Below, in pieces: positions 1 through 28,608 of a stretch of 64,000 nucleotides of DNA. Made by a program: the position numbers and the translations under genes. How positions within the stretch are numbered: the first letter of the stretch is position 1; each line of letters begins with the position of its first letter. This DNA comes from Holophagales bacterium (GTDB lineage Bacteria > Acidobacteriota > Thermoanaerobaculia > UBA5066): NCBI GenBank assembly GCA_016719485.1, contig JADJZB010000006.1, positions 27,375-91,374 on the forward strand. The letters are read 5' to 3'. The notes below the pieces were generated by a model. That model had not been told where the DNA came from and searched no databases. It saw nothing but the letters and a program-made list of their open reading frames with translations.

Positions 1-598
1 CCCTCATGACGAGCTGCATGAGAGGGTCGAAGAGACCTGTCAGGGCGTGGAAACGTAGAGCCGGGATATATGCGGCCCCGCTCGTAGGGTCGCGCTGAAG
101 AACCCGGACGGCGGCGTCGACGCTGACCGGTCGACCGCACGTGAGGCCCTGTTCGCTCTTTGGCATACCTACCTCTCGGATTCCTCCGCCGATACCCTTG
201 GCGGAGCAATGAACTCGAGTTCGGTGAGACCCTGCTCCGCCTTCGCCGTCCTCTGGTCGAGAAGATAGCCCCGGCAGATTAGAGGCGCCTTAGACGAAGG
301 AAGGGAAGCAGCGTCCGCCGTTCGGTTAGCCGATTCGCGTTTCGGGCCGCCCGCGTTCCGACCCAGGGCCGAGGGGCTTGCTGGCTCAGATCCGACCGAA
401 GGTACCCGACGACCGTATGCCTTTCCGTGGAAGGAGCGGCACGCGTTTTAAGGCGCCTCTAATCCACTCGACCCATTCTTGAGGTCAAGAGGCAAACGGG
501 AGCATTCCGAATGCCCCGGATCAAAGTCCTTTCACGCTCGTCCCGAAACGTAGGCCAGCCGGCGAAGCACAGCCCAAGACGATGGCAGGAGGTTCGCG

Positions 599-1021
599 AT
601 GTCCGCAGAGCGTCCCAAGGTAACTCGGCATCTGGCATCCGTCATTCTCGTCGCTTCCGCACTGATCTCGTCCGTCCGACCGGCTGCCGCTAGCCCACAA
701 GTGCCGGCCTCCGCTGCGGCCGAGAGCCGAACCGTGATGAAGGTCGCAGTCACCCCGAAGGACCACCTCGACAGGGCCGTCGAGTATCGAAAGAAGGCCG
801 CCGCCTACCGCGAAGAGGCGAACGTGCATCGCGAGATGATCCTGGCCCTCAAGAAGCGACTGCCGCCCGATACCCGGCCAGGAAACTACGAGCCTCCCGA
901 GCTGGAGAAGCTGCGGAGCCACTGCAACGGCTACATCAAGGACGCAGAGGCACTGGCGGCGAAGGCGGAGAAGCTGGCCGAGTACCACGAAATGCGTGCG
1001 GCCGAGCTGAGCGGCCAGTGA
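599..1021 (+). CDS. hypothetical secreted alpha-helical protein (tandem paralog 1)
   Basis: ORF with N-terminal hydrophobic signal-like segment (HLASVILVASALISSVRPAAAS); shares EYRKKAAAYREEA and HCNGYIKDAEALAAKAEKLAEYHEM-type motifs with the next ORF; no family recognised by eye. Confidence 0.45.
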   Translation: MSAERPKVTRHLASVILVASALISSVRPAAASPQVPASAAAESRTVMKVAVTPKDHLDRAVEYRKKAAAYREEANVHREMILALKKRLPPDTRPGNYEPPELEKLRSHCNGYIKDAEALAAKAEKLAEYHEMRAAELSGQ

Positions 1022-1110
1022 GCCTGTCCAAGTGCGGGTGCGCCGCGTCTGGGCCCGAGGTGCCGACTCCGCTTCGCCTCCCGACATCCCGCCCATGGAA
1101 AGGAGCTGCC

Positions 1111-1515
1111 ATGCTCAACCACGCTGTCCACAAGATCCAGAGCCTCGCCTTTGCCGCCCTGCTCGCAGCGCCACTCACTCTTCTGCCGCTCGTTGCGGAC
1201 GCGCAACAGGAGGGAGGGGCTTACCCGATGTTCGCCGACGAAATCGCGAGGCTCCCGGAGGTTCATCTCGCAAGAGCCGAGGAATACGAAAGGAAGGCGG
1301 CGTCGTACCGCAAGGAAGCCGCCAAACAGCGAAAGCTGCTCGGGGATTCCATCACCGGGAACAGAGAACCGGAGCGGGCGGACACCGATCCGATGATTCT
1401 GGAGATGAGGCGACACTACGAAGCGTATATAGAGAAGGTGGAGGCCGTCGCGCTCGAGGCGGAGCGGTTCTCCACCTTCCATCGGAAGCAGTGGGAAACA
1501 CTGCGGGGAAAGTAG
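1111..1515 (+). CDS. hypothetical secreted alpha-helical protein (tandem paralog 2)
   Basis: ATG at 1111 preceded by aaaggag RBS; signal-like AFAALLAAPLTLLPLVADA; paralogous to 599..1021 (EYERKAASYRKEA / HYEAYIEKVEAVALEAERFSTFH). Confidence 0.5.
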   Translation: MLNHAVHKIQSLAFAALLAAPLTLLPLVADAQQEGGAYPMFADEIARLPEVHLARAEEYERKAASYRKEAAKQRKLLGDSITGNREPERADTDPMILEMRRHYEAYIEKVEAVALEAERFSTFHRKQWETLRGK

Positions 1516-1518
1516 CTG

Positions 1519-2172
1519 TCACGGAAGATCGCAGAGGGGGAAGCCCGCCCGGGCAGACGGAGCGCGGACCCGGGCCGCAGGGGGCCCGGCGCAGCGTTGC
1601 CTTTGGGGCCGGAAGGCGGGTCGAAGAGACCCGTGAGGGCGTGGAATCGGGGCGCGGGCACGAGAGGGCTCCGCCGCGCTCACCGCCTTCCCCCGGCCGA
1701 TGCGGACTCGGGCGTCTTCTCGGACCCTGCGGTGAGCCCGGGCACGGGGACGGACTCCACGCTCCGGCCAGGACGCGACTCGTGAGGGGCGTTCCGCGAG
1801 GCATACCCTGAGCCGGGCCTCCAGGTCCCAGAGGCTCCCTTTCTCGACGACGAGGTCGGCGCCGAGACGGAACGCTTCCTGTCGTACCTCGGTCGTCGAC
1901 GAGCCCGTCCAGACGAAGATCACGGGGCGCGGCTCGAAGCGCGCCGCCGCGGCGACGACTTCCAGGCCGTCTCGCGTGTGCCGTCCCGTGAGGTCGAGGT
2001 CCGTGACGACGGCCGCCCAGCGCCGGGCAGCCAGGAGGACCAGGGCGGAGTCGAGGTCGAGAGCCTTCGCTGCCTCGAAACCTCGCCGCGCGAGGAACTC
2101 GGCAGTACAGAACGCGAACGAGACGTCGTCCTCGACCAGGAGCAGAGTGGCGCGGGGAGAGGTTCGTTCCAT
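1519..2172 (-). CDS. stand-alone response-regulator receiver (CheY-like) domain protein
   Basis: N-terminus LLLVEDDVSFA...AAVVTDLDLTG...VWTGSS...LGADLVVEKG matches receiver fold; C-terminal ~90 aa Arg/Pro-rich tail looks like low-complexity read-through, so true stop uncertain. Confidence 0.55.
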   Translation of the reverse strand: MERTSPRATLLLVEDDVSFAFCTAEFLARRGFEAAKALDLDSALVLLAARRWAAVVTDLDLTGRHTRDGLEVVAAAARFEPRPVIFVWTGSSTTEVRQEAFRLGADLVVEKGSLWDLEARLRVCLAERPSRVASWPERGVRPRARAHRRVREDARVRIGRGKAVSAAEPSRARAPIPRPHGSLRPAFRPQRQRCAGPPAARVRAPSARAGFPLCDLP

Positions 2173-2325
2173 GTCTCAATGTTGGGGACCGGACCTTAGA
2201 ATTCGATGAGAGAGAAGGCATCTCACCCTCTAATGCTGCTCTAAGGTATGGGTCCTATCTTTCCGCCCATACACGGCTGCGGTGCGAGACGCTCGCTCAG
2301 CGGCCGATCGACAGGAGACATCGAC

Positions 2326-2739
2326 ATGCGTAAGGCTCTCTCCGTTCTCGCGGCTCTTGCTCTCGCGCTCTCGGCCGGCGTGGCCTCCGCCCACGACGGG
2401 CACGCCCATGGGAAGGAAGCGATCCTCGGTACTGTCGCGCAGGTCCACGGTGACCACCTCGAGGTGGCGGACCCCGACGGCAAGACGGTCTCCGTCACGC
2501 TCACGAGCGCGACGACCTACCTCAGGGGAGACTCCGAGGCGAAGAAGGCCGACCTGAAGCCCGGTGTGCGCGTCGCCGTGGAGACGGCCGATGGCAAGTC
2601 GGGGCTCGAGGCCAGGATCATCCGGATCGGCGCCGAGGAGAAGGCTGTCTGGACCTGCCCGATGCATCCCGAGGTGAAGAGCGCCGGCCCCGGGAAGTGC
2701 CCGAAGTGCGGCATGTTCCTGGAGAAGAAGAAGGCGTGA
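2326..2739 (+). CDS. periplasmic copper/heavy-metal-binding protein with C-terminal Cys-rich metal-binding domain
   Basis: RBS acaggaga then ATG 2326; signal peptide MRKALSVLAALALALSAGVASA; His-rich HDGHAHGKE; C-terminal TCPMHPEV...PGKCPKCGM resembles the heavy-metal-binding domain seen on CusB/P1B-ATPase termini. Confidence 0.65.
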   Translation: MRKALSVLAALALALSAGVASAHDGHAHGKEAILGTVAQVHGDHLEVADPDGKTVSVTLTSATTYLRGDSEAKKADLKPGVRVAVETADGKSGLEARIIRIGAEEKAVWTCPMHPEVKSAGPGKCPKCGMFLEKKKA

Positions 2740-2767
2740 GGGCCGGTTCGGCCGGAGGGGGTTCGAC

Positions 2768-3385
2768 GTGACGCGCACAGGCCGGGTCCTCCTCGTAGCG
2801 GGAGCCGTCGTCGCCGTCGGCTGCGGGTACGCCCTCGCCGCGGCCGTCCGCCGGGGGTTCAGCGCTCGCGAGGAGCCGACGAAGGCCGAGGAGGTCGTGG
2901 CACGGACCTTCCGGGGGTGGGCGACACCGGAGGCGGCGCGCCGTGTGCCGAACCCCGTCCCCACAGGCCCCGAGGTCCTCGCCCGGGCGCGGGCACACTT
3001 CGCCGACCATTGCGCGAGCTGCCACGGGAACGACGGGAGCGGGCAGACGCCAATGGGCCGCCGCCTCTACCCGCGGGCGCCCGACATGCGTTCCGGCGAG
3101 ACCCAGCTCCTCACCGACGGCGAGCTCTTCTCCATCATCAGGAATGGAATCCGCCTTACCGGCATGCCCGCGTGGGGCAATGGCACGCCGCCGGAAGATG
3201 TCGGCACGTGGGAGCTCGTCCACTTCATCCGCCACCTTCCGAAGCTCACGCCGGCCGAGCTCGCGGAGATGGAGTCCCTCAACCCGAAGAGCCCGGCCGA
3301 GTACGAGAAGGCGAGGCAGATCGAGGCGTTCCTTTCCGGCTCCGGTTCGTCCGACGCGTCCCCGCGAGAACGGAGCGCGCATTGA
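2768..3385 (+). CDS. mono-haem c-type cytochrome
   Basis: CASCHG (CxxCH) haem-binding motif, N-terminal membrane anchor/signal, GTG start 28 nt after previous stop. Confidence 0.7.
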   Translation: MTRTGRVLLVAGAVVAVGCGYALAAAVRRGFSAREEPTKAEEVVARTFRGWATPEAARRVPNPVPTGPEVLARARAHFADHCASCHGNDGSGQTPMGRRLYPRAPDMRSGETQLLTDGELFSIIRNGIRLTGMPAWGNGTPPEDVGTWELVHFIRHLPKLTPAELAEMESLNPKSPAEYEKARQIEAFLSGSGSSDASPRERSAH

Positions 3386-3440
3386 AGCGCGAAGTGCAGC
3401 CTCGTGATGTCGTCCGGCTCGGGCAAGGGATGTAGGGCCG

Positions 3441-3779
3441 ATGCCCATCGTCGAGCTCGTCGCCTTCGACGGCTGCCCGAACCGCGACAGGGCTCGCGCG
3501 AACCTCCGGGCGGCCCTTGCCGAAGCCGGCCTCCCGTCCGTTTGGCACGAGCTCGACGCGAGCGGACCGAACGTTCCCGACCGCGCCCGGAGCTGGGGGT
3601 CTCCGACGATTCTGGTGGACGGCGTCGACGTCTCCGGGGCATCCGCGCCACCGGGCGGCCGCGCGTCCTGTCGCCTGTACGGTTCCGCGGGTGATCACGG
3701 AGCGCCTTCCGTGGCCGTGATCGTCGCAGCGCTTCGGTCCGGATCGGCTCGTCCGGGTGACAGCGGAGCGTCATCGTGA
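3441..3779 (+). CDS. thioredoxin/glutaredoxin-like fold protein (single-Cys GCP motif)
   Basis: MPIVELVAFDGCPNRD...SPTILVDG pattern fits a thioredoxin-fold beta-alpha-beta core; stop overlaps next start (GTGA). Confidence 0.4.
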   Translation: MPIVELVAFDGCPNRDRARANLRAALAEAGLPSVWHELDASGPNVPDRARSWGSPTILVDGVDVSGASAPPGGRASCRLYGSAGDHGAPSVAVIVAALRSGSARPGDSGASS

Positions 3780-4138
3780 CCCCTCCAGCGGCCCGTGCTC
3801 TGAGCAGAACGAGCCTCGTCGCGGCGCTCGTCTCGGCAATCGGCGCCTCCCTCTGCTGTATCGGTCCGCCCGCTGCAGGCATGCTCGGCCTCGCCGGGGC
3901 CGGCTCCTTCGCCCTCTTCCACGAGTACCGGCCGTACCTCGCCATCGGCACGATCGTCCTGCTCTGGGCGTCAGTCGGGCTTACCTACAGGACGAGTTCC
4001 GCGGCCTGCTGCGCGACCGGGACCGATTCGAGGCCATGGAATCCAGACCCGCGCGACCGGCGATGGCGGCGTCTGCTCTGGATCGTCGTCGCCCTCACGC
4101 TTGCCTTCCTGACGATCCCCTGGTGGTTCAGCCCCTAG
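3776..4138 (+). CDS. MerT-like heavy-metal (mercuric-ion type) transport membrane protein
   Basis: Cys-Cys pair in first predicted TM (GASLCCIGP) and HEYRPYLAIGTIVLLWASVGLTYR segment resemble MerT (ASACCLGP / LEPYRPIFIG...); translationally coupled to upstream ORF. Confidence 0.55.
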   Translation: MTPPAARALSRTSLVAALVSAIGASLCCIGPPAAGMLGLAGAGSFALFHEYRPYLAIGTIVLLWASVGLTYRTSSAACCATGTDSRPWNPDPRDRRWRRLLWIVVALTLAFLTIPWWFSP

Positions 4139-4244
4139 CGTTTCAGCTGGCGCGACGCCAGGGCGAAACACGATATGACCATAAGGTGATAGAATGACCC
4201 GTGACGAGCCAAGGCCGTCAACGGTCCGAAACAAGGAGGTTCCT

Positions 4245-5149
4245 ATGCGGTGTCTCAAGTCCATTCTCGGTGCAGCGGCTCTCGTCAGCGCCCTCGTCAC
4301 GTTTCCCGCCACGGCCCAGATGGGCGGCGGTGGGGCGAACGGCGGGCCCGGTGACGGCATGACGAACGGGACAGAGGATCTGGTCATTCCTGCGGGTGTT
4401 CGTGGAGAGGGCCGGTTCAGCTCCTTCTTCGTCACGGATCTCTGGATCAAGGCGACCGGGACCGGAACGGCAACGCTCTACTTCCACGCGGCGGACTCGA
4501 CGTCGACCGCCCCAGCCGCCACGGCGACGGTGAACCTCACCCAGCCGATTACGTACCTGCCCGACGTCCTTCAGGCCAACTTCGGTCTTGCTGCGGGCTT
4601 CGGGGCGATCCGCGTAGCGGCGAGCATCCCGATCTCGGCGACCGTGCGCGTCTACAACCAGACCGGGGCGGGTGCCTATGGCCTGGCGTTCATGGGAATG
4701 CCGAGCCGGATGGGAATGACCTCAATGCCCATGGGCGGCTCTTACGGCATGGACGAATACGCGATGTACATGCTCGGGCTCCTTCCGCAGCCCGGTAACC
4801 GCGTGAACGTAAACGTCGTTGCACGGCCTCGACGGGCGCTACCGGCGTCGTCGAGATCGTCGACGCCGACGGATCGACTCCGACGGGCACGGGCGCCAAG
4901 AGCCTTCCATTCACCCTCGCGGGGTACTCTTCGCACCAGTTCAACGACGTCCTTCTGAACGTCCATTCGAAGTTCCCGACCGGTGACGCCGGCCTCCAGA
5001 TCCGCGTGCGGATGAACCAGGGCGGAACCGGAATGGTGATGGCCTACGCCGTCGTGAACGACAACACGACGAATGACGGCTATGTCGTCATGGGCAGCAT
5101 GATGAACGGCGGCCGTGGCATGGGCGGCGGGATGATGGGCGGGCAGTAG
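4245..5149 (+). pseudogene. secreted Met-rich (MGM/MxM repeat) protein, reading frame interrupted near 4815-4830
   Basis: aaggagg RBS, ATG 4245, signal peptide MRCLKSILGAAALVSALVTFPATA; after ...GNRVNVNVV the annotated frame becomes Arg/Ser junk while the -1 frame continues as TASTGATGVVEIVDADGS...MMNGGRGMGGGMMGGQ to stop at 5147-5149. Confidence 0.5.
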
Positions 5150-5204
5150 CCCGGCGATCGGGCGTCCGAAGCCCCTGCCGTTTCGACGAGACATAGGCAG
5201 CGAT

Positions 5205-5236
5205 GAGGGCCTCCCTTCAAGGGAGGCATTTCTCGA
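5205..5236. terminator. bidirectional rho-independent terminator hairpin between convergent genes
   Basis: gcctccc-ttcaa-gggaggc stem-loop followed by T-rich tttctc, located between stop 5149 (+) and stop 5324 (-). Confidence 0.5.
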
Positions 5237-5323
5237 TCTCGTTCGTTACTGCGGCTCCGCAACGCACGGCGGCAATAGCAGCCCTGCATCGAGGCTGAGG
5301 TCCGGCAGGGCGGCTCCTCCCGT

Positions 5324-6259
5324 TCACGGCTCGACGACGACCATCATCGAAAGCCCGGTCGCGCCCGCCGCGCTGTCTCCCACGTGCTGCAGGTTGTGGC
5401 AGTGGAGCATCCACGTTCCTGGGTTGTCCGCTTCGAGGAGGCCGTCGTAGCGCTCCCCGGCGTTGAGCGGCAGCGTGTCCTTCCGGTAGGGCGACGGCAA
5501 CGGGAAGCCGTCCGTCGCCGTGACCGTCCAGCTCATCCCGTGCAAATGCATCGGGTGGACCATGTTTCCGGTGTTCACCATCCGGAAGAGGACCCTCTCG
5601 CCCTTGCGCACGCGGATGTCGGGGACGTTCGGGCCCGTCTTTCCATTGATGAGGAGCGTCCCCGTCATCATGCCCGACGAGGACATCCCGCCCCCCATTC
5701 CCATTCCTCCGCCCATCCCCATGCCGCCGCCCATCGCGCCGGGCATGGAGCCGAGCTCACCGACGACGAGGGAGACCTCGCGGTCCCATTCCTTAGGCGC
5801 GGAAGCCGGCGGCTCGACGACGAGGAGGCCGTAAAGGCCGCGGGCGATCTGAGCAGCGGAGCTGAAGTGAGGGTGGTACCAGTACGTCCCGGGCTCGGGG
5901 GCCGGGAACTCGTACGTGAACCGCGCACCGCGCGCCACGGCCGGTGCGGTGACTCCCGGGACACCGTCCATTCCGTGGGGAACGGGGACCCCGTGCCAGT
6001 GGATCGTCGTCGCCTCGGGGAGCTGGTTCACGAGCGTGACTCTGACGACGTCTCCGGCGGAGACGCGCAGCTCGGGGCCGGGGAGCGTCTGGTTGTACGT
6101 CCAGGCGACGACCTTCTGCCCGGGCGAGATCTCCCAGGTCGAAGCGGCGGCGGTGAGGGTGAACTCGCGCACCGCGCCGAGGGCGGGGGAGGCGGCGGTC
6201 GCGGCGAGAGCCCCGAGCAGGGGGAGCGCCGCGGTCAGGCGGAGTCGGGCGGTCGTCAT
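5324..6259 (-). CDS. small multicopper oxidase (cupredoxin) with Met/Gly-rich insert
   Basis: ATG 6259 with ggag RBS; signal peptide MTTARLRLTAALPLLGALAATAAS; copper ligand motifs HWHG, HPH, HCHNLQH, MHLHG; insert MGGGMGMGGGMGMGGGM typical of Cu(I)-binding CopA/CueO-like oxidases. Confidence 0.8.
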   Translation of the reverse strand: MTTARLRLTAALPLLGALAATAASPALGAVREFTLTAAASTWEISPGQKVVAWTYNQTLPGPELRVSAGDVVRVTLVNQLPEATTIHWHGVPVPHGMDGVPGVTAPAVARGARFTYEFPAPEPGTYWYHPHFSSAAQIARGLYGLLVVEPPASAPKEWDREVSLVVGELGSMPGAMGGGMGMGGGMGMGGGMSSSGMMTGTLLINGKTGPNVPDIRVRKGERVLFRMVNTGNMVHPMHLHGMSWTVTATDGFPLPSPYRKDTLPLNAGERYDGLLEADNPGTWMLHCHNLQHVGDSAAGATGLSMMVVVEP

Positions 6260-6345
6260 CGGGAGCTCCTTCTTGAGAAGAAGGGCGGCGCGACCTCGGG
6301 GTCGCGCCGCCCGGTGATCGTGGGCAGGGGCGGCTTCGCCGCGGG

Positions 6346-7041
6346 CTACTGATCGAGGGCGACCGTCCAGAGGAGGCGGCCGGTGAGGTCGACGGCGACG
6401 AGGCTCCGCCGCATTCCCTGGAAGCCGGCATCGCCCGGACCCATGTGCCCGGTCGTCGTGCCGCCGGTCGTCGTCGACGTCGGCGTCCCGACGAGGAGGA
6501 CGAGCCGGTCCGAAGCAGCCTCGACGCGCATCGCGACGCCGTCGATGGCGAGCCGCCACGCCTCGGCGCCGGTCGTGGAGCGAAGCGCGACGAGCGCGCC
6601 CGTTCGGGGTGCAGTCCCGGTCGTGCCGTACCCGTGTGGTTCACCGGTGGAGACGACGAGGAGGTCGGCGGCGAGCGTCAGGTCCCTGATGGCGTCCGTC
6701 GACCTCCAGGACCAGGCGTTGGTGCCGTTCGGGCCGATGGCGAGGAGCTCGTCGGCGATCGCGGACGTGCCGGTGCCCGTCAGCTCCCGGGAGACGACGA
6801 ACGTCGTCCCCGCAGGCGAGACGAGGACGCGGCCCATCCCTCCCATGTCGTCGCCCATGCCCCAGCCCATGCCCGAGCCGGAGCCCATCCCGCCGGTCCC
6901 TCGGGGACCCGTCGTCGACCCGCCGTGCCCGCTGCCGTGCCCACCGCTCCCCATGCCTCCGCCCATCATCTGCGCCGCGGCGGCGCCGGACAGGGAGCAG
7001 GCCAGGAACGCGATTGTCGCGATGGTTGCCGTTCGTCTCAT
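6346..7041 (-). CDS. secreted Gly/Met/His-rich protein (putative periplasmic copper-binding)
   Basis: ATG 7041 with gaggtga RBS; signal peptide MRRTATIATIAFLACSLSGAAAA; MMGGGMGSGGHGSGHGG and GMGSGSGMGWGMGDDMGGMG tracts; directly upstream of the multicopper oxidase, same strand. Confidence 0.5.
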   Translation of the reverse strand: MRRTATIATIAFLACSLSGAAAAQMMGGGMGSGGHGSGHGGSTTGPRGTGGMGSGSGMGWGMGDDMGGMGRVLVSPAGTTFVVSRELTGTGTSAIADELLAIGPNGTNAWSWRSTDAIRDLTLAADLLVVSTGEPHGYGTTGTAPRTGALVALRSTTGAEAWRLAIDGVAMRVEAASDRLVLLVGTPTSTTTGGTTTGHMGPGDAGFQGMRRSLVAVDLTGRLLWTVALDQ

Positions 7042-7100
7042 CGATCTCACCTCTTCACGAATTGCCCCGAGCCGAGGCTCGCGGGCTGCTTTCATCAAGC

Positions 7101-7116
7101 GCAACGCCCGTGCCAC
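7101..7116 (-). promoter_or_regulatory. sigma54 (-24/-12) promoter reading toward 6346..7041 and the oxidase gene
   Basis: minus strand reads TGGCACGGGCGTTGCGC = consensus TGGCACG-N4-TTGCW; ~60 nt upstream of ATG 7041. Confidence 0.5.
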
Positions 7117-7251
7117 TTCATGGGCGCTCCTTCCGGCCTCGTTCGGGTCGAAATGCCGCTTTCGGGCTTCGGCGAGGTGCCGGAGAAAGGGGCAAACCGA
7201 CCCTGACCCGATCGGCGGCGCCGACGGCATCTCGCGCGGACCGGCGGGTCC

Positions 7252-7980
7252 TCAATGGCCCTTCGGTCCCATCGGGGTGCTGCCGTGCGAGCCGCCCCCG
7301 TGGCTCTGGGGCATCTTCCCGTCCGGCGCCGCGCCCGGCATCCCGTGCTCGGACCCGGAGGACATGCCCGTACCGCCGTGCATTCCCCAGGAGTGCTCGC
7401 TCATCCCCATCGACCTCATCGGCGTCGATCGCGGCGCCGCCATCGGGCCGAACGTGCAGGCCTCGTCGGCCCGCACGAGGACCGGAGCCGCACCGGCCTT
7501 CGTCGGCCTCACTTCCACCGTCCCCTCGAAAACTGCGAGGAACGAGCGCCCGTCTTTCGCCACCTCCAGCCCGTACCGCGTCCCGCGGACGGCGAGGAGG
7601 GCACCGGGCGCGGCGACCGTCCGCGCTTCGGCCGATCCGTCGGTCAGCGCCTCGAAGAAGGCCTTGAGGCGCCCCCTCTCCACCGTGAGAAGGACGCCCG
7701 GGGCCCCGGCCGCGAGCCGGGCGCGCGTGCTCGAACCGATCTCGAAGCGCGCCTTCCGCTCCGGCACGGAGAGCACCGCCTTTCCCCAGAACCCGGTCCG
7801 GACGAGGTCTCCGGCCGCGGCCACGTCCCCGGCGGCGACCCGCACCTCGGCCGCCTCGTCGCCTCCCGGGGCGCGCAGCACCTTGCTCTTCACCTCGTCG
7901 AAACGGTAGGCCGGCGTCCCGGGCTCGATCGCGGCCAGGATGCCGGCGGCGAGCGCGGCCAGCGGCAGGATGAGCTTCAT
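7252..7980 (-). CDS. periplasmic FecR-domain protein with Met/His-rich C-terminal tail
   Basis: signal peptide MKLILPLAALAAGILAA; FecR-like core DLVRTGFWGKAVLSVPERKARFEIGSSTRARL; tail MRSMGMSEHSWGMHGGTGMSSGSEHGMPG...SHGGGSHG; start overlaps stop of upstream regulator (ATGA). Confidence 0.6.
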   Translation of the reverse strand: MKLILPLAALAAGILAAIEPGTPAYRFDEVKSKVLRAPGGDEAAEVRVAAGDVAAAGDLVRTGFWGKAVLSVPERKARFEIGSSTRARLAAGAPGVLLTVERGRLKAFFEALTDGSAEARTVAAPGALLAVRGTRYGLEVAKDGRSFLAVFEGTVEVRPTKAGAAPVLVRADEACTFGPMAAPRSTPMRSMGMSEHSWGMHGGTGMSSGSEHGMPGAAPDGKMPQSHGGGSHGSTPMGPKGH

Positions 7981-9362
7981 CGTTCCTCTCCTTCGCCTCC
8001 CTCGGCGACCGGGCCTCCCGCGGCCCGCAGCTTCCGGGCGAGCGTCTTCCTCTCGATGCCGAGCAAACGCGCGGCCAGCGTCTGGTTCCCTCCCGCCGAC
8101 GCGAGGACGGAGAGGATGTGGTGCCGCTCGACCTCCTCCAGCGTCGGCGGCGTCGCGGGCAGCGGCTCCCCCCCGATCGGCCTCGACCACGAGGAGGCCG
8201 CCGCGGGGCCGGCGCCCTCCTGGAGCGCGTGCTCGAGGGCTGCGGTGTCGTCGAGCCGCCCGGCGTCGATGAGCGCCCGGCGGACGACGTGGGAGAGCTC
8301 CCGGACGTTTCCCGGCCAGGTATGACCGGCGAGCCTCTCGAGGACGGCGGCCGAGACGGTCGCCACCTCGGGGAGACCGAGCTCTCGCCGCCCGAGGCGC
8401 TCGAAGTGGGTGACGAGCGCCGGCAGGTCGCTCAGCCGCTCTCGGAGCGGCGGGATTCGGATGACGTAGCCGGTAAGCCGGTAGTAGAGGTCCTCCCGGA
8501 AGCGTCCCTCGCCGACCATCCCTTTCACGTCGCGATGCGTCCCCGCCACGACGCGCACGTCGACCGCTTCGCCCGCCTCGGCCCCGACGGGGGTCACGAC
8601 GCGGTCCTCGAGGAACCTCAGGAGCTTGACCTGGAACGCGGCGGACACCTCGCCGATCTCGTCGAGGAAGAGCGTCCCTCCCGCAGCCTGCGACAGCGCG
8701 CCGCGGCGATCCCGCGAGGCGTCGGTGAACGCGCCGCGCCGGTGGCCGAAGAGCTCGCTCTCGAGGAGCGTGTCGGGGATCGCCCCGCAATGGACGGGGA
8801 CGAGGGGGCCGGAGCCGCGGCCGCTGAAGCGGTGGAGAGCGCGGGCGACGAGCTCCTTCCCCGTCCCCGTCTCGCCGAGGACCAGCACGGGCACTCGGAG
8901 GCGCGCGACCCGCGCGACCGCCTTGTAGACCTCGACCACCGCCGGGTGCGACCCGACGATCATGCTCTCCGGGCCGTCCTCGGCGGGCGCGTGACCGGCG
9001 GGCCGCGCGGCGAGGGCGGCCGACACGCGGTCGAGGAGGACCGAGACGTCGAACGGCTTGGCGAGGTAGTCGAAGGCGCCCGTCTCCTCCGCGGCGGCGG
9101 CCGTCTCCACCGAGCCGCGCGCCGTCATCAGGATCACCGGAGGCGGCGCCGGCCGCGCCTGGACCTCGCGAAGCACCGACAGGCCGTCGCCCCCGGGCAT
9201 GTAGATGTCGCAGAGAATCACGTCCGGGCGGGCCGTCTCGAGCTCCCTCCGCGCGTCGCGCGCTCCGCGGGCGCGCGCCACCTCGAACCCGCTCGCCTCG
9301 AGGGTCAGGGCCACCATCTCCCGGATGGCGTCGTCGTCGTCGATGACGAGGGCACGCGGCAT
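7977..9362 (-). CDS. sigma54-dependent response regulator (NtrC family: receiver + AAA+ + HTH)
   Basis: receiver VIDDDDAIREM...ILCDIYMPGGDG; Walker A GETGTGKE, GAFTDA motif, ESELFGH, C-terminal HTH; 461 aa. Confidence 0.85.
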   Translation of the reverse strand: MPRALVIDDDDAIREMVALTLEASGFEVARARGARDARRELETARPDVILCDIYMPGGDGLSVLREVQARPAPPPVILMTARGSVETAAAAEETGAFDYLAKPFDVSVLLDRVSAALAARPAGHAPAEDGPESMIVGSHPAVVEVYKAVARVARLRVPVLVLGETGTGKELVARALHRFSGRGSGPLVPVHCGAIPDTLLESELFGHRRGAFTDASRDRRGALSQAAGGTLFLDEIGEVSAAFQVKLLRFLEDRVVTPVGAEAGEAVDVRVVAGTHRDVKGMVGEGRFREDLYYRLTGYVIRIPPLRERLSDLPALVTHFERLGRRELGLPEVATVSAAVLERLAGHTWPGNVRELSHVVRRALIDAGRLDDTAALEHALQEGAGPAAASSWSRPIGGEPLPATPPTLEEVERHHILSVLASAGGNQTLAARLLGIERKTLARKLRAAGGPVAEGGEGEER

Positions 9363-9382
9363 CTACGTCCTCCTTCGGGGCT

Positions 9383-11196
9383 CTACGCCCCCGCCCGCCG
9401 CGGGAAGCGTGACGCGGAAGAGGCTCCCCCCGAGCCGGGAGCCTCGACGTCGATGCGGCCCCCGTGCCACCTCACGATCTCGGCCACGAGGGCGAGGCCG
9501 AGACCGAGCCCCGGGACGGTCGCCGCGGAGCCCCCGCGGGCGAATCGCCGGAAGATCTCCTCTCGCTCGCCGGGCGGGATTCCCGGCCCCCGGTCGCGGA
9601 CCGTGAGGCAGACCGATTCGCCGCCGGCCGGGCCCACCGCCACGTCGACCGGCTCGCCGGGCGCGAACTTCAGGGCGTTGCCGACGAGGTTGTCGACGAC
9701 GCGGACGAGGAGCGCCGCATCGCCCTGTACGGCGAGCCCGGGCTCGCCCGAGAACCGGATCTCCCGCTCCGCCCCCCGAGGCAAGGAGCGCCGTTCGCTC
9801 CTGGACGAGCTCCGGGAGGTCGACGAGCGAGGAAGACCCTTCGGAAGTCCCTCAGCTTGATCCTCTCGAGGTCCAGGAGCGTCTCCACCATCTCCGCGAG
9901 CCGCGCGCTCTCCCGCGCGACCATCCCGGCGACCGACCGGCGGCGCTCCTCGCTCAGGTCGAACCCGGAGAGGAGCTGCGCGAGCCCCCGCACCGACGTC
10001 AGCGGCGTCTTGAGCTCGTGCGCCAGGACGCGGCGCGCTTCCGCGTCGTCCTTTCGCTCGCTCTCGAGAGTGGCGGCGAGCGCTTCGAGCTCGACGATGC
10101 GCCGGACCGCGACCGCGGCCCGGCGGCGGTCCGCGAGGAGGCGCCACAGCTCGGGGCCCGCCGTCGCGGCGAGGCCGCCGAACGCCGTCGCGAGGAGCGG
10201 CAGCTCCCGCCCGGCCCAGAGGAGCAACACCATCCCGGCCGGAACCGCGAGCAGGGGGACGGCGGCCGCCGCGGGAGCCAGACGAGGCGCGACCCGCCGT
10301 CGCAGAGCCGTCGCACCACCCGTCAGGAGACCGGCGAGTCCCCCGGCAACGAACGGAGGGAGCCGTTCGTACAGGTCTCCCGTCAGGAGCGACTCGGTCG
10401 CCGCCGCCTGCACGAGGACGCCCGGATCGGGCGTTCCGCGCTCCGATAGAGGCGACACGACGCGGTCTCCGACCCCTGCCGCGACCGAGCCGACGAAGCA
10501 GACCCGGCCCCGGAGCGCGCCCTCCGGCAGGCTCCCGCTCAGGACGTCCGCGGCGCTCCAGGTCGGCACCTCGTCCGCGGAACGGAAGCCGGGCCGGATC
10601 GGTGCCCCGACCGGCAAGGGGATCTCCGGCCGCAGGAGCCGGGCCGCCGCGAAAGGCATCGCGCCGAGGGAGAGCCCGTCGAGCTGCCGGGTCGCGAGGA
10701 AGCCGCGAACGACGCCGTCGCGATCGACGGCGAAGCTGACGTGCGCCACCTCTGAGGCCGCGCGCAGGCCGGAAGCGGGGAGAATCCATCGCTTTGTCCC
10801 GTCCGGCGCGGCGGCGAGGACCGACGGTCTCGCCGCGAGCGCGGTAGCGAGGGCCTCGTCGCCCGGGCGTGTCTCCGCGAGGAGGAGGTCGATCGCCACG
10901 GCGGCGGCCCCTGCCGCCCCGATCCGGTCCACGAGGGCGGCCAGGCGCTCCCGCTCCCAAGGCCACGGCCCGACAGCGCCGATCGCCTCCTCGTCGACGA
11001 CGACCGCCGCGACGGATATCGCGGCCGCCCTCGGCCGGGTCCGCAGGAGCGCGTCCCGAACCAGCAGCTCGGCGGAATCGACCCAGCCCGCAGCGGCAAC
11101 GAGCGTCACGAGGAACGCAGCCGCCAGCGGCGGGCCGAGACCTTCAGCCGCCCGAATCCGGGTCGCCTTCACCTCGGGGAGAGTACGTCTGCGCAC
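9383..11196 (-). pseudogene. CHASE2-domain sensor histidine kinase, frame disrupted between HisKA and HATPase regions (~9760-9850)
   Basis: ORF 9670..11196 has TM + CHASE2-like region and H-box VLAHELKTPLTSVRGLAQLL; the HATPase region (VVDNLVGNALKFAPGEP...GLGLGLALV) lies in a different frame (ORF 9383..10966); a third frame gives HK-like LVDLPELVQERTALL between them, implying two indels near homopolymers. Confidence 0.65.
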
Positions 11197-11324
11197 ATTA
11201 GAACCGCCTTAGAGGTACGGGCTCCTCGCGCGGTTCGTGCAGGCGACTGAGCACCTCCGGCGAGGCGCGGTCGAGGCCCGATCCCCCCGCTCGGGTTCGT
11301 CCCTCCCTGCTTCTCCCATCGATC

Positions 11325-13628
11325 TCACGCCTCCACCATCCTCTTCCGGTCGCGGAAGGCGACCCCGCAGACGACGAGGAAGACGACCTCGACGAGGGCG
11401 ACGACGATCATCCACTTCACGATGGGCGAGTCGCCCATGCCGTAGGAATGCATACCCGCGTTCAGGACGTAGTTCACGCCGAGGTACGTCATCAGAATCG
11501 TCTGGAAGGCGAGGATGCTGATTGCCGCCGCGCCGAACGTCCCGATCACCTTGTCGACCTTCAGGTGGAGGATCGCCATGTAGGCGAGGAAGGCGACGAG
11601 CGACCAGACCTCCTTCGGGTCCCAGCCCCAGTAGCGGCCCCACGACGAGGCGGCCCAGACGGAGCCGGTCAGGATCCCCGCGAGGAGAAAGATCGACCCG
11701 ACGTGCATGTACCAGTAGAGGAGCTCGTAGAGCTTCTCGACGAGCGCGCCGCGCCCCCTGCCGAACGCGGCGAAGCCGATCTGCATGTGTGCGACGACGA
11801 CGCCGAGGGCGAGGACGGCGTAGCCGACCATGATGATTGGGACGTGGATCGCGAGCCACGGCGTCCCCGCGAGAACCGGAGCGATCGGATGGATGAAGCG
11901 GTCCATCGGGAGGAGGTCGGTGAGCGCCATCGTGAGCGCGGACATCGCGGCGGCGTTCAGGACCACGGTCCGGTTCCGCATCAGGAGGTAGGCGATCACG
12001 GCGAAGAGGCCGACGCCCCAGCCGAGGAAGAGGAGCGATTCGTACATGTTCGCCGCGGGGATCCGCTCTCCCGCGGCCCAGCGCATCCCGATCCCCCACG
12101 TCATCGCGCCGAAGCCGAGGACGAGGAGGCCGAACGAGGCCCAGTCGAGGGCCTTGCTCGCCTTCCCCGACGCCGCGATCGAGACGACGAGCGAGGCGAG
12201 GAGGACGAGCCAGGCGAGGCGCGAGGGGTTGACCCGGTTGTAGAGGATCTCCCCCTCCACCTTTTCCTTCGTCGGCCAGCCCGGAAGGCGCGGCCCGTTC
12301 GCGAGGGCAAGGAGCGCCGGCGTCGAGACCTCGAGCGGGACGTTCCAGCGGGCCTTCGGGTCGCCCGGGGAAGGGATCGGCCGGACGACGTCCCGCTGGA
12401 GGACGGCATAGAGAGCGTTGAGGCGTTCCTCGAGCTTCTCGGCGTCCTTGAGGACACCGAGACGCGGCTGGTCGTGCTGCGCGGCTTCACCGGCCGACTC
12501 GATGAGCCGCATCACCGTCGGGTTCGAGACGAGCTGGTGGAAGGATGCCTGCCTCGCCGCCGGGTCGAGGCCCGCCGCGGCGGCGAGTTCCTTGCTGACC
12601 TTCACGGCCGGTGCCGCTGACGCGCTTTTCGGGTCGAGGAGCCACCCGATGAACGTCGCCGCCGGGTCCTGGCCGTTCCAGGAGCGGGAGCCCGTCACGT
12701 TCCAGACCGTCTCTCGCGCGAGCGTGTCGAGCGGCATCACGCGTCCGTCGTGCTGCACCGGCAAGCGCTTCAGCGCCTCGACCTCTGCCGGCGTCTGCGC
12801 GCTCGCCGTGCCGGCCAGCCCCGCGAGGGCGAGGACGGCGCCGAGCGCCTTCCCCATCGTCGGAAGGGACATCCCGGCCTGCGCGACCTTCGCCTCGAGC
12901 TCGCTCCGGCTCTTCTCGCGCTCGCGAGCCTGCGAGACGCGCGTCAGGAGGACGAGGATCATCCCGAGGACCAGCGTCGCGTAGCCGGCGAAGACGACGA
13001 GCTGGCCCGGGTCCTTCGAGACTGAGAGCACAGTCGCCTCGCGCCCGCCCTGTTGCTGGTAGCTCGACTGGAAGAGTGACCAGCCGCGGTGATGGAGCGG
13101 GGTGTTCATGAAGATCCGCGTCGGAAAGCTCTTTCCAGTGTCGAGGTCGGTGACGACGACCTGGCTCGCGAAGCCCGAGGGACGCTTGGTGCCCTGGTAG
13201 GTCTCGAGGACGAAGTCGTCGAGCTTCACCGAAAAGGGGAGGTCGTGCTTCGCGAGGACCGTCCCCTTCTCGTCGACGTGCTCGACCGTCGAAGACGCCT
13301 GCCCTTCCCAGAGCCCGAGCTGCCCCTCCGTCTTCCCGAAGTAGGTCAGCGCCGCGCCGACGAAGATGAGGAGAAGAGAAGCGTGCGTCGTGACGAAGCC
13401 GATCCGCTGCTTCCCCCACGGGAAGTGGGTCGCGATCGAGCAGGCGACGTTGACCGCGAAGAGCCCCTGGAGCCCCAGGAACCACCACGAGTAGTAGACG
13501 AGCCGTCCCGCGGTCGCCGCATCCGTGCGGGACTCGAGGATCGTCCCGGCCGAGAGGCCGAGGAGGAGTACCACGAGGAGGACGACGGCGAGCTTGAGGG
13601 ATGCAAGGGTGCCGACGAGCTTGTTCAA
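11325..13628 (-). CDS. cytochrome c biogenesis system II fusion protein CcsBA (ResB-like + CcsA/ResC-like)
   Basis: N-terminal ResB-like membrane/periplasmic region; C-terminal CcsA WWD motif WGRYWGWDPKEVWSLVAFLAYMAILH; 767 aa. Confidence 0.8.
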   Translation of the reverse strand: MNKLVGTLASLKLAVVLLVVLLLGLSAGTILESRTDAATAGRLVYYSWWFLGLQGLFAVNVACSIATHFPWGKQRIGFVTTHASLLLIFVGAALTYFGKTEGQLGLWEGQASSTVEHVDEKGTVLAKHDLPFSVKLDDFVLETYQGTKRPSGFASQVVVTDLDTGKSFPTRIFMNTPLHHRGWSLFQSSYQQQGGREATVLSVSKDPGQLVVFAGYATLVLGMILVLLTRVSQAREREKSRSELEAKVAQAGMSLPTMGKALGAVLALAGLAGTASAQTPAEVEALKRLPVQHDGRVMPLDTLARETVWNVTGSRSWNGQDPAATFIGWLLDPKSASAAPAVKVSKELAAAAGLDPAARQASFHQLVSNPTVMRLIESAGEAAQHDQPRLGVLKDAEKLEERLNALYAVLQRDVVRPIPSPGDPKARWNVPLEVSTPALLALANGPRLPGWPTKEKVEGEILYNRVNPSRLAWLVLLASLVVSIAASGKASKALDWASFGLLVLGFGAMTWGIGMRWAAGERIPAANMYESLLFLGWGVGLFAVIAYLLMRNRTVVLNAAAMSALTMALTDLLPMDRFIHPIAPVLAGTPWLAIHVPIIMVGYAVLALGVVVAHMQIGFAAFGRGRGALVEKLYELLYWYMHVGSIFLLAGILTGSVWAASSWGRYWGWDPKEVWSLVAFLAYMAILHLKVDKVIGTFGAAAISILAFQTILMTYLGVNYVLNAGMHSYGMGDSPIVKWMIVVALVEVVFLVVCGVAFRDRKRMVEA

Positions 13629-22347: not shown

Positions 22348-22505
22348 GGTATCTATTTTCGTTGTCCCATGCTATCCGTAGATACCCGCGGAAGTGAAGT
22401 GTGCCAGCGTAAATCTATGGTATATGGCTAGTTGCGGCTGTCCGCAGACGGAGGTGCCGAATGGGGTTCAAGGGGTCGCGAGTTCGAATCTCGCCGTCCC
22501 GACCA
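22348..22505 (+). repeat. tRNA-3'-end-like element, copy a (~158 nt; homologous to 26649..26805)
   Basis: ends with atggggttcaaggggtcgcgagttcgaatctcgccgtcccgacca = T-arm (gcgag/ttcgaat/ctcgc) + 7-nt acceptor 3' strand + ACCA; ~70% identical to copy b over ~110 nt upstream of the core. Confidence 0.6.
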
Positions 22506-22589
22506 TCTTTAAATCACTCACAGGAAATGGTTTACAGGTGTCCACCGATGCTCCGTTCGGTGCTGCTGGTATCCGGTGGCCGGATCAGG

Positions 22590-22893: not shown

Positions 22894-23304
22894 CTACCTC
22901 CAGTTGCGGTCCATGAGCCCGTGGTCCTCTACGTCGTCACGCGCGCCCTCGACGCCAGTACCGATAGGCTTCGATCCACTCGGTGCCGCTGGGCGGGCGG
23001 GCAGGCAGGGGCAGGTCGAGGATGGGGATTCTCTGCCGGGGGGGCCCGCGACACAGAGGGCAACGATGCCGTCGTCCGTCAACTCCACTCGCTTGACCGA
23101 AACCGCCACGCCAAGAATTTCCGTCGAGAAGGGGAGGGCGAGGTGATCCTCTATCAGCGTGTAGAGCCCCGACTGCTGCTCGTCGTCGTTGTACGTATCG
23201 ACGGTCGCCTCGGCGACCAGCGCATCGAGCTGTGGGCCTGAGAGACGCACCCGTCGCCCGGCGGGGCGAGCGGGGGCCGGCCGGACCGTCTGGCGACTCT
23301 TCAT
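22894..23304 (-). CDS. hypothetical small protein translationally coupled to the primase-helicase gene
   Basis: ATG 23304 overlaps the upstream stop (ATGA); LSGPQLDALVAEATVDTYNDDEQQSGLYTLIEDHLALPFSTEILGVAVSVKRVELTDDGIVALCV reads as genuine protein; C-terminus crosses a C7 homopolymer so the end is uncertain; antisense ORF 22798..23241 rejected. Confidence 0.4.
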   Translation of the reverse strand: MKSRQTVRPAPARPAGRRVRLSGPQLDALVAEATVDTYNDDEQQSGLYTLIEDHLALPFSTEILGVAVSVKRVELTDDGIVALCVAGPPGRESPSSTCPCLPARPAAPSGSKPIGTGVEGARDDVEDHGLMDRNWR

Positions 23305-25802: not shown

Positions 25803-26293
25803 CCGGCGACGTCTTCTCCCGCCAGTGAGAGGACGCGTTTTCGAATGTCGGGCGACATCCACATCCCGGAGGCAGCGAGAAGGTCCACGAGCGGAGCTAC
25901 GGAAGGGACGAGGCGAGCCTTCTTGGCCTCGAGCAGGACACGGAGGGTGCCCCAGGTGGTCAGGCCGGCGGCGCGGGCCGTCCGCCGCGCGAGCGCATCG
26001 TCGAGAAGGAGGATTCGCTGAGGGTTTTCGAGGGCGAGCGCCATCGCGGCGAGCTCTCCGGCTCCGAGATCGAGAGTCAGCCACTCGGAGGGGGTCGATT
26101 TCGGGTCGACGGTCTCCAGCCAGGCCAGGTTGTCCGTGTCTGGCACCTCGAACCCGAGTGCCCGCCCTTCGCCGAGCTCCCTCAGGACCGCCGACGGAAC
26201 CCAGACCGACCCGAAGAGCTGGTCAAGCCAGCCGAGAGCTCCGATCCGACCCAGGTAGAGAAGGGGAGAGGTGTTAGTGATCGAGCCTGGCAT
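25799..26293 (-). CDS. DUF3368-type PIN-like nuclease domain protein (putative toxin)
   Basis: MPGSITNTSPLLYLGRIGALGWLDQLFGSVWVPSAVLRELG pattern typical of DUF3368; overlaps upstream ORF by 20 nt and the downstream primase-helicase by ATGA. Confidence 0.55.
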   Translation of the reverse strand: MPGSITNTSPLLYLGRIGALGWLDQLFGSVWVPSAVLRELGEGRALGFEVPDTDNLAWLETVDPKSTPSEWLTLDLGAGELAAMALALENPQRILLLDDALARRTARAAGLTTWGTLRVLLEAKKARLVPSVAPLVDLLAASGMWMSPDIRKRVLSLAGEDVAG

Positions 26294-26534
26294 CGCCTTC
26301 GAGCTCGGTAAGCTCGGCTTCCAGCGGGAACGTCTTGTAGCGCTTCAGCTCGTAGAGGAACTCGACCCGGCCCATTCCAGCGAGCTCTGCCGCTCGGCCC
26401 GAGGAGAGCCTGCCCAGTTCATAGAGCTTGACCGCCGCGAGGACCTGCAGCTCCCTCGCGAAAGACACCTCGTCGGTCTTCTCGGATAGAAGGACCTTTT
26501 CCGGAACCGCGACAACTACCGACCGTGACGCCAT
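26274..26534 (-). CDS. UPF0175-family antitoxin-like protein
   Basis: 86 aa, SFARELQVLAAVKLYELGRLSSGRAAELAGMGRVEFLYELKRY typical of UPF0175 partners of DUF3368. Confidence 0.5.
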   Translation of the reverse strand: MASRSVVVAVPEKVLLSEKTDEVSFARELQVLAAVKLYELGRLSSGRAAELAGMGRVEFLYELKRYKTFPLEAELTELEGDARLDH

Positions 26535-26648
26535 CTCTTTGGACTCCCATGGCGATTGTCTCTCAAGAGCGCTGCCCGATCCTGTCGGATCCTTCCCGCG
26601 GGGGGCCGAACGCAGGTTTCAGAAGCGTCGTTCATTGAGAGCCTCAAG

Positions 26649-26805
26649 GTATCTACTTTCGTTGTCCGATGCCGTCTGCGGATAGTCCGGGCGGCATCTC
26701 ACCCAAGCGTAAATTCATGATATATGGCCAGTTACAGCTGTCAGTGGACGGAGGTGTCGCATGGGGTTCAAGGGGTCGCGAGTTCGAATCTCGCCGTCCC
26801 GACCA
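26649..26805 (+). ncRNA. tRNA-3'-end-like structured RNA element, copy b (followed by intrinsic terminator)
   Basis: same 45-nt T-arm/acceptor/ACCA core as copy a plus ~110 nt of homologous upstream sequence; followed by gccgccggg-aa-cggcggc + TTTTT; canonical 5' acceptor strand not found by eye. Confidence 0.45.
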
Positions 26806-26825
26806 TTGATTCCAAAGGATTTAGA

Positions 26826-26851
26826 CGCCGCCGGGAACGGCGGCGTTTTTG
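26826..26851 (+). terminator. rho-independent terminator after tRNA-like element b
   Basis: gccgccggGAAcggcggc hairpin followed by gttttt. Confidence 0.6.
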
Positions 26852-26858
26852 CGCCTGT

Positions 26859-27560: not shown

Positions 27561-27580
27561 GGCGAGGTTGGGGTCCGGGG

Positions 27581-28093: not shown

Positions 28094-28452
28094 GGAGGGA
28101 GTGTATTCGTGATTCGCGAAACGCGAAAGGGCGAGAACTCGAACCGGTTCTATTGGCCCGTCGCGAGGCCGCGTCTCGCAGGAACCCGATGCGATCCTCA
28201 CGACCCTCGCCGCCAGTGTCGATACGCCTCAATCCACACCGCCCCGCCGGGAGGAAGATCGGGGAGACTCGGTGAGCCTTGTGTACGAAACGTCGGGGAT
28301 CGCAGGCGGAAGTCAACAGTTTGTTCTTCGCCGGGAACCACCCGAGAACGAACGGCGAATCGGAGGTGCTGCGAGGCGAGGAGGTGTCCACACTACTGTC
28401 CAAAACGGCCGGACCCATCGGGCTCCCGGCGTCGAAAGCGCTCCTTTTCCCC

Positions 28453-28497
28453 ATGGGGTTCAAGGGGTCGCGGGTTCGAATCTCGCCGTCCCGACCA
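28453..28497 (+). repeat. tRNA-3'-end-like core, copy c (one substitution: gcggg instead of gcgag in T-stem)
   Basis: atggggttcaaggggtcgcgggttcgaatctcgccgtcccgacca; no upstream homology to copies a/b. Confidence 0.55.
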
Positions 28498-28608
28498 CTC
28501 TGATCGCCGAGACGGAAGCCGCGGACGACCTCCACGGCGTCGAGCTTTTCGCGCGTCGACCAAGCCTCGTCTTGACGAAGCCGTTGGCCGCGCCGACCGG
28601 TTGAGGCG

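Follow-up and report, generated by a model that had tools for sequence, protein, structure and literature searches.

The stretch of DNA studied here (the window; 64 kb, G+C content of 0.69) is part of contig JADJZB010000006.1 of a Holophagales bacterium known from metagenome assemblies. According to Pfam matches, its first 22 kb form a metal island, and three intergenic patches of this copper island contain the five copies of a short direct repeat, TTAGA-N6-TTAGA. Read on the opposite strand, each copy is TCTAA-N6-TCTAA, or YTCTAAK-N4-YTCTAAK in its fuller form, with a period of 11 bp, and is aimed at a gene start. This element, referred to below as the box, is probably the operator of an OmpR/PhoB-family winged-helix regulator from a heavy-metal (copper/silver, CusRS/CopRS-like) two-component system, as argued here from sequence comparisons. 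The genes at which the five boxes (s1, s2, s3b, s3, and s4) are aimed are listed first; designations of the type L001 stand for related loci.

1 to 167, minus strand: class I S-adenosylmethionine-dependent methyltransferase, cut by the window edge (249 amino acids in L001; 94.7% DNA identity to L001/L002)
599 to 1021 and 1111 to 1515, plus strand: two paralogous secreted proteins (140 and 134 amino acids) without a family match
1519 to 2172, minus strand: receiver-only response regulator (217-amino-acid open reading frame; 163 amino acids in L001 and L008)
2326 to 2739, plus strand: heavy-metal-binding-domain (HMBD)/DUF5666 protein (Pfam)
2768 to 3385, plus strand: cytochrome c (Pfam), followed by further small genes on the same strand
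11172 to ∼9364, minus strand: CHASE2 histidine kinase, with frame shifts relative to the intact 602-amino-acid protein of L163
9362 to 7977, minus strand: sigma-54-dependent response regulator (Pfam)

The boxes themselves, with their weight matrix scores and the -10-like hexamers that follow them, are located as follows.

278 to 294, minus strand: box s1, TCTAAGGCGCCTCTAAT, 25.5 bits, aimed at the methyltransferase gene (ATG at 167)
262 to 267, minus strand: -10-like hexamer TATCTT of s1, 10 nt downstream of the box
447 to 463, plus strand: box s2, TTTAAGGCGCCTCTAAT, with a degenerate upstream half, 19.6 bits, aimed at the secreted-protein pair
474 to 479, plus strand: -10-like hexamer CATTCT of s2, 10 nt downstream of the box
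2195 to 2211, minus strand: box s3b, TCTCATCGAATTCTAAG, 25.7 bits, aimed at the receiver-only gene (ATG at 2172)
2179 to 2184, minus strand: -10-like hexamer CAACAT of s3b, ending 6 nt before the ATG at 2172
2229 to 2245, plus strand: box s3, TCTAATGCTGCTCTAAG, 33.1 bits, aimed at the HMBD/cytochrome c operon (ATG at 2326)
2256 to 2261, plus strand: -10-like hexamer TATCTT of s3, 10 nt downstream of the box
11197 to 11213, minus strand: box s4, TCTAAGGCGGTTCTAAT, 29.9 bits, aimed at the CHASE2 kinase/sigma-54 activator operon
11180 to 11185, minus strand: -10-like hexamer TACTCT of s4, 11 nt downstream of the box and ending 7 nt before the GTG at 11172

RESULTS

Five direct repeats are confined to three intergenic patches

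A pattern search of the whole window returned three exact copies of TTAGA-N6-TTAGA, at 279-294 (plus strand), 2229-2244 (minus strand), and 11198-11213 (plus strand), whereas 0.01 would be expected. Allowing one mismatch added 447-462 (minus strand) and 2196-2211 (plus strand), resulting in a total of five versus 0.13 expected, and the recurrence of the motif, first noticed by a model that had read the sequence alone (the original prediction), is thus real. The TTAGA pentamer as such is not overrepresented (11 occurrences versus 15 expected); 8 of these 11 fall inside the five sites, as do all ATTAGA and CTTAGA hexamers of the window (four each). With a weight matrix, the five sites scored between 19.6 and 33.1 bits, and the next best position of the window reached 9.3 bits. 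Scores were bimodal across the related loci, too, with true sites at 19 bits or more and noise at 13 bits or less. No match was found in 578 kb of unrelated high-GC loci, and three were found in 927 kb of unrelated high-GC loci, each of them adjoining a homologue of the candidate regulator introduced below.

Several details of the original prediction could be refined. The copies that it had reported exist, but are displaced by 1 to 2 nt: ATTAGAGGCGCCTTAGA is located at 278-294 and ATTAGAACCGCCTTAGAGG at 11197-11215. It had also described the copies at 279 and 447 as an inverted pair. Here, 15 nt (ATTAGAGGCGCCTTA) are indeed identical, but the copy at 447-464 is imperfect, with TTAAA in place of TTAGA. 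A TTAGAA half-site, placed at 2198, was recovered at 2196, where it is one half of a fifth full site, the second half being TGAGA. The patches had been characterized as AT-richer, which holds for two of them (G+C content of 0.62 and 0.56) but not for the third (0.68, versus 0.69 for the window). The inverted pairs s1/s2 and s3b/s3 are back-to-back divergent promoters.

Boxes keep a fixed distance to a -10-like hexamer

Each site of the window is intergenic, lies 22 to 135 nt from a gene start, and is aimed at that start. The hexamers downstream of the five boxes share the pattern [T/C]AnnnT, typically TATCTT. This pattern, which has a background frequency of 0.8%, occurred exactly 10 nt after the 17-mer in 11 of 12 promoter groups and 11 nt after it in the twelfth (binomial P of ∼1e-22, a value that overstates independence, since the 12 groups are partly paralogous). 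Among 38 distinct box-plus-promoter strings in 360 kb of related loci, the -10 hexamer was found at a distance of 10 nt in 36 and of 11 nt in the remaining 2. Tandem direct repeats of the form YTCTAAK-N4-YTCTAAK were present in all five window sites as well as in the 38 distinct related sites. The half-sites are, as originally proposed, spaced 11 bp apart in promoter regions, and they are direct repeats that end 10 to 11 nt before a -10-like hexamer.

Since the box ends 10 nt (once 11 nt) before the hexamer, it spans roughly -40 to -24. The place of a -35 element, 16 to 18 nt upstream of the -10 hexamer, falls into the variable spacer of the repeat, which suggests that these are promoters without a -35 element. 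Transcription is predicted to start ∼7 nt downstream of the -10 hexamers, near 255 at s1, with a leader of ∼88 nt, near 486 at s2, and near 2268 at s3. At s3b and s4, the start codon follows 6 to 7 nt after the -10 hexamer, and leaderless mRNAs starting near 2172 and 11172, respectively, are therefore predicted for both (leaderless or near-leaderless in the case of s4). In L163, the independently called starts at 877 (kinase, with the same GTG) and 17611 (receiver protein, with an ATG 6 nt after the hexamer) coincide with the predicted leaderless codons. The GTG at 11196 lies inside the s4 promoter and is unlikely to be the start of the kinase gene.

Half-sites and -10 hexamers are conserved among related Acidobacteriota

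A scan with the HMBD protein, covering one genome per species, identified nine full-length relatives, all of them in metagenome-assembled Acidobacteriota labelled Holophagales, Thermoanaerobaculia, or Acidobacteria. Further related loci were gathered via homologues of the methyltransferase, which added the s4 orthologues in L163 and L164. The comparative set comprises a few related metagenome bins with duplicated modules. DNA identity of the window to L001 and L002 amounts to 94 to 97%. Exact-sequence lookup of the window HMBD protein and of the 140-amino-acid secreted protein returned no record.

The motif is kept in the orthologous intergenic regions, that is, upstream of the HMBD gene in L001 to L008, where the orthologous or paralogous HMBD proteins are 65 to 93% identical. 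In a footprint alignment of eight loci at s3, the two half-sites and the -10 hexamer were invariant and the spacers varied. Box s1 is identical in L001, L002, L004, L006, L007, L163, and L171, and sequence conservation toward the methyltransferase gene begins exactly at this box. Box s3b is conserved in L001, L002, L003, L006, L008, L160, L163, and L166. The paralogous promoter of s2 at L008:7887 has a full box (TCTAAGGCGACTCTAAT), and an orthologous s4 box is located upstream of the intact kinase gene in both L163 and L164.

Two features of the s1/s2 region were recorded in addition. The spacer of box s1, GGCGCC, is a palindrome and was the same in all genomes that were examined, in contrast to the freely varying spacers of the other boxes. 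In L001, an IS21-family element (L001:5340-7576; IstA-like transposase and IstB ATPase) lies between the divergent boxes that are ∼150 nt apart in the window.

A CusR-like regulator is encoded beside a box in related islands

An OmpR-family regulator and a HAMP kinase are encoded in the same island of L004, L007, L008, L160, and L161, with the regulator gene of L008 at L008:5767-6441. The best NCBIfam family of the regulator was the heavy-metal regulator TIGR01387 (260.9 bits, versus 191 for PhoB) and that of the kinase was the heavy-metal kinase TIGR01386 (283.5 bits, versus 141 for PhoR). The regulator is ∼47% identical to CusR of Escherichia coli and 37% identical to PhoB. A box of 24.6 to 32.5 bits lies ∼40 nt upstream of each of the relatives' regulator genes and faces a divergent gene for a Cys-rich membrane protein, followed by cusC-type efflux genes. 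Beside their own genes, homologues of the regulator on other high-GC contigs (47 to 56% identity) have related repeats with a period of 11 bp (TCTCAT, TCTCAG, and TCTAAT), to which all three control matches of at least 19 bits can be attributed. By synteny with a contig shared by L002 and L008, the regulator gene would be expected ∼15 kb to the left of the window. Targets in the island include the HMBD protein, cytochrome c, and, in the relatives, cusCBA-type operons, and the island also holds a multicopper oxidase and a P-type ATPase.

The Cys-rich protein between the box and cusC is a small, membrane-anchored protein at L160:18603-19195 (minus strand) and L008:5186-5677 (minus strand) that had escaped gene calling. 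Its gene, oriented divergently to that of the CusR-like regulator, comes first downstream of the box and is missing from the gene table of L160.

The original prediction had suggested a site for a winged-helix-type regulator, and this is supported by the geometry, the conserved half-sites, and the presence of the CusR/CopR-like OmpR-family regulator in the relatives' islands. We therefore consider the assignment of the box as an operator of such a heavy-metal regulator probable. The two regulators encoded in the window, a sigma-54 activator and a receiver-only protein, are unlikely binders. The receiver protein (1519-2172) was rejected because it lacks a DNA-binding domain; its orthologues have 163 amino acids, and its Arg-rich tail is not conserved. 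The sigma-54 activator (7977-9362) was rejected because such activators work from a distance on -24/-12 promoters, and the sites here abut -10 hexamers.

A number of observations weigh against this assignment. No OmpR-type, winged-helix (Trans_reg_C) regulator is encoded anywhere in the 64-kb window, and we infer the presence of the CusR-like regulator in the source genome from relatives that are ∼95% identical to it at the DNA level. Both family scores are slightly below the curated cut-offs (260.9 versus 279.2 bits for the regulator and 283.5 versus 292.55 bits for the kinase). The box beside the regulator gene is oriented away from that gene, and autoregulation would thus depend on a bidirectional effect. 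Close relatives and paralogues make up many of the related loci, so that the independence of the promoter groups is incomplete. When metagenomes were scanned with the regulator protein, a single close relative was returned, which was truncated (L080), so that the co-occurrence of box and regulator concerns few genomes. In the more distant relative L009, genes for the kinase and the sigma-54 activator are present without a box detectable by the weight matrix, and the window's own cusCBA operon (21868 to 16130) likewise has no upstream box by this measure. Finally, proteobacterial CopR, PcoR, and AgrR bind an inverted repeat, ATKACANNNNTGTMAT, and not a direct repeat (PMC7380067).

Other readings of the box

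The box might be a transcription factor site with a different binder, either another OmpR-family regulator, such as PhoB, or an uncharacterized DNA-binding protein encoded elsewhere. The lack of a winged-helix gene in the window fits this explanation, as does the fact that the co-occurrence with the CusR-like regulator is limited to four or five related contigs. Moreover, sequence and geometry of the box are similar to those of the pho box: its unit is CTCTAAT versus CTGTCAT, and the pho box sits 10 bp upstream of the -10. However, all targets are metal related and none is a phosphate gene, the adjoining regulator and kinase score higher on the heavy-metal families than on PhoB and PhoR, and homologues of the CusR-like regulator have related repeats beside their own genes. 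Targets and adjoining two-component system thus argue for the CusR-like protein over PhoB, and a different binder appears unlikely. Membership in a Pho regulon as such was rejected, since the regulator fits PhoB worse than the heavy-metal family and phosphate genes are absent from the targets.

It is very improbable that the repeat is read directly by an alternative sigma factor (of the extracytoplasmic function or another type) without any activator. The fixed distance to the -10-like hexamer and the missing canonical -35 element would be expected under this explanation. Sigma-70-family factors, however, use a spacing of 16 to 19 nt, which neither repeat fits, as the two end 10 and 21 nt from the -10. 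In addition, a 7-mer repeated in tandem at a distance of one helical turn is characteristic of sites for dimeric DNA-binding proteins, and neither the window nor the examined loci yielded a sigma factor gene. Sigma-54 promoters (TGGCAC-N5-TTGC, GG-N10-GC) were also considered and were absent from the sites; the single good match is located elsewhere, at 7100-7115 (minus strand).

The proposal of a small repeat family marking the island, be it inverted terminal repeats of miniature elements or recombination sites with the 279/447 pair as its ends, retains almost no probability: 278-294 and 447-463 do share 15 identical nt in inverted orientation ∼150 nt apart, and the island does border a tRNA-like fragment and mobile-element genes, but the IS21 element in L001 and ∼140 extra nt in L002 between s1 and s2 leave both sites intact, conservation runs outward from the sites toward the genes and not inward, s4 occurs singly, and the 5- to 6-nt cores are conserved at a fixed distance to the -10 hexamer while the spacers are not. 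Transposon ends or miniature inverted repeats were rejected because the s1-s2 interior ranges from ∼150 nt to 2.9 kb, leaving no discrete repeated unit.

Further features of the island

Apart from the box targets, the following features were annotated on the minus strand.

5324 to 6259, minus strand: multicopper oxidase (Pfam)
7042 to 6346, minus strand: Met/Gly-rich secreted protein, between the sigma-54 promoter and the oxidase
7100 to 7115, minus strand: near-consensus sigma-54 promoter TGGCACGGGCGTTGCG, upstream of the genes for the Met/Gly-rich protein and the multicopper oxidase
Downstream, minus strand: ResB/CcsA fusion, P-type ATPase, and cusCBA (Pfam)

The sigma-54 promoter lies just downstream of the sigma-54 activator gene and is conserved in L002. 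Taken together with box s4, it suggests a cascade in which the OmpR-type regulator would control the CHASE2 kinase/sigma-54 activator pair, which in turn would control the oxidase operon. The CHASE2 kinase gene of the window (9364-11172) shifts frame several times between ∼9838 and 9366 in comparison to the intact 602-amino-acid L163 orthologue, reflecting either indel errors of the assembly or a pseudogene; the window assembly seems to carry frame shifts.

At 1519-1810 (minus strand), the nonconserved Arg-rich tail of the receiver open reading frame overlies a remnant of the methyltransferase 5' end, as 1618-1658 resembles 24-64. In L160 and L166, receiver and methyltransferase form one operon, so the arrangement in the window looks like a rearranged copy.

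The methyltransferase gene is preceded by a 5' leader of ∼90 to 100 nt (window 168-262, minus strand; L001:5068-5170; L004:15774-15876), with counterparts at L006:8165-8277, L163:9915-10008, and L171:2896-3008. Its first ∼50 nt are identical in the window, L001, L004, and L006 and show few differences in L163 and L171; the aligned methyltransferase region of L006 is 77% identical at the DNA level. GGCGGAG occurs twice and CTCCGCC once in the leader, so that alternative hairpins are possible, and there is a possible stem that would sequester the ribosome-binding site. Three one-sided changes leave the predicted 5' hairpin intact, and a compensatory change is seen in one pair (folding z-score of only -1.7). 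A search of Rfam at E ≤ 1 with window positions 1-12000 gave no match for either the sites or this leader. We regard the leader as a candidate riboswitch or attenuator.

Just beyond cusC, at ∼22440-22510, the sequence resembles the 3' half of a tRNA gene; ARAGORN reported no tRNA gene in the window. The fragment is followed at 22894-29085 by genes for a TOTE-type archaeo-eukaryotic primase-helicase, a UPF0175 protein, and a HepT-like RNase. Together, the fragment and these genes probably represent the boundary of an integrated element beside the metal island.

DISCUSSION

If the box is the operator of a CusR-like regulator, periplasmic metal would activate the sensor kinase, and the phosphorylated regulator would bind the two repeats head to tail. 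It would then recruit RNA polymerase to promoters with a -10 and without a -35 element, presumably activating rather than repressing them by a class II mechanism, as PhoB does at pho boxes. Five units of the window would be switched on in this way: the methyltransferase, the secreted-protein pair, the receiver-only regulator, the HMBD/cytochrome c operon, and the CHASE2 kinase/sigma-54 activator pair. The latter would constitute a second tier, probably driving the sigma-54 promoter of the multicopper oxidase operon.

More speculatively, the box could define a portable, lineage-specific copper regulon of uncultured Thermoanaerobaculia/Holophagales, with the CusR-like regulator atop a three-tier circuit; we regard this extension as possible, albeit doubtful. 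The modules of an island that is shuffled, duplicated, and in part mobile would then each bear their own box and -10 without a -35 element, and the CusR-like regulator would directly activate the CHASE2 kinase/sigma-54 activator pair and, through it, the multicopper oxidase operon. The leaderless receiver-only protein, also a direct target, could act as a phosphate sink. The methyltransferase would be a direct target as well, and its leader of ∼90 nt, which is more conserved than the coding sequence, may be an undescribed cis-regulatory RNA.

For Acidobacteriota known only from metagenomes, the analysis provides a testable regulon, consisting of a consensus box, five predicted promoters with their start sites, two mRNAs predicted to be leaderless, and a named candidate for the regulator. 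The analysis also assigns a probable copper/silver response to genes of unknown function, namely, those for the secreted-protein pair, the HMBD/DUF5666 protein, and the methyltransferase, and it suggests a cascade from an OmpR-type to a sigma-54 system. Instead of the proteobacterial inverted copper box, a subfamily of CusR/CopR-like regulators may rely on direct repeats of the pho box type, which is relevant when metal regulons of environmental genomes are annotated by motifs. The type of switch is ordinary, as PhoB-type class II activation is proposed, and general principles of gene regulation are unchanged by the result. Somewhat unusual are how many promoters a single island contains, the two targets predicted to be leaderless, and a second (sigma-54) tier that is apparently under control of the first. 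In the searchable literature, we found no description of the YTCTAAK-N4-YTCTAAK consensus or of copper regulation in these Acidobacteriota.

Comparison with known systems

With respect to geometry, the closest resemblance is to OmpR-family sites made of direct repeats. PhoP of Mycobacterium tuberculosis and other OmpR-family regulators bind direct repeats of 7 bp that are separated by 4 bp (PMC4832192), and the box shares with the PhoP site the 7-4-7 direct-repeat geometry for a head-to-tail dimer, but not its sequence, signal, or regulon. The E. coli pho box consists of two 7-bp direct repeats of CTGTCAT with a 4-bp spacer (PMC4447250, PMC2648988). As in the pho box, 7-4-7 direct repeats with a period of 11 bp stand in the same orientation to the gene, lie ∼10 bp before the -10, and replace the -35 element, and one or two positions distinguish the unit found here, CTCTAAT (CTCTCAT in s3b), from CTGTCAT. 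In contrast to the pho box, the targets are metal resistance genes, the candidate regulator is CusR/CopR-like, the organism is an uncultured acidobacterium, and the spacer is G+C-rich and variable, whereas that of the pho box is A/T-rich.

By protein family, the candidate probably belongs with CopR, PcoR, CusR, and AgrR, since the heavy-metal regulator subfamily is its best NCBIfam match; type II activation is proposed here as for these regulators. The box differs from the proteobacterial copper box in being a direct rather than an inverted 6-4-6 repeat, its half-sites are unrelated, and the number of target promoters in the island is much higher. Membership in that copper box family was rejected, as the sites are direct TCTAA repeats without dyad symmetry. 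CusR of E. coli binds the region that separates cusRS from cusCFBA (PMC8249747), and the divergent layout of regulator and efflux genes in the related islands is like that of E. coli cusRS/cusCFBA and of copR/cg3286 in Corynebacterium glutamicum (PMC8249747, PMC3140484).

The closest copper-specific precedent is the CopR box of C. glutamicum, TGAAGATTTnnTGAAGATTT, which is a direct repeat (PMC3140484). Both systems tie direct repeats with a period of 11 bp to a copper-responsive OmpR-family regulator, although in our case this role is predicted. In both, the regulator operon and a divergent copper resistance operon have a box between them, and a multicopper oxidase and an ATPase are part of the island. 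The repeat sequences differ, however, and CopR of C. glutamicum has a single genomic site that is far from one of two start sites, whereas the island described here carries at least five boxes within ∼11 kb, all at a fixed, promoter-proximal position.

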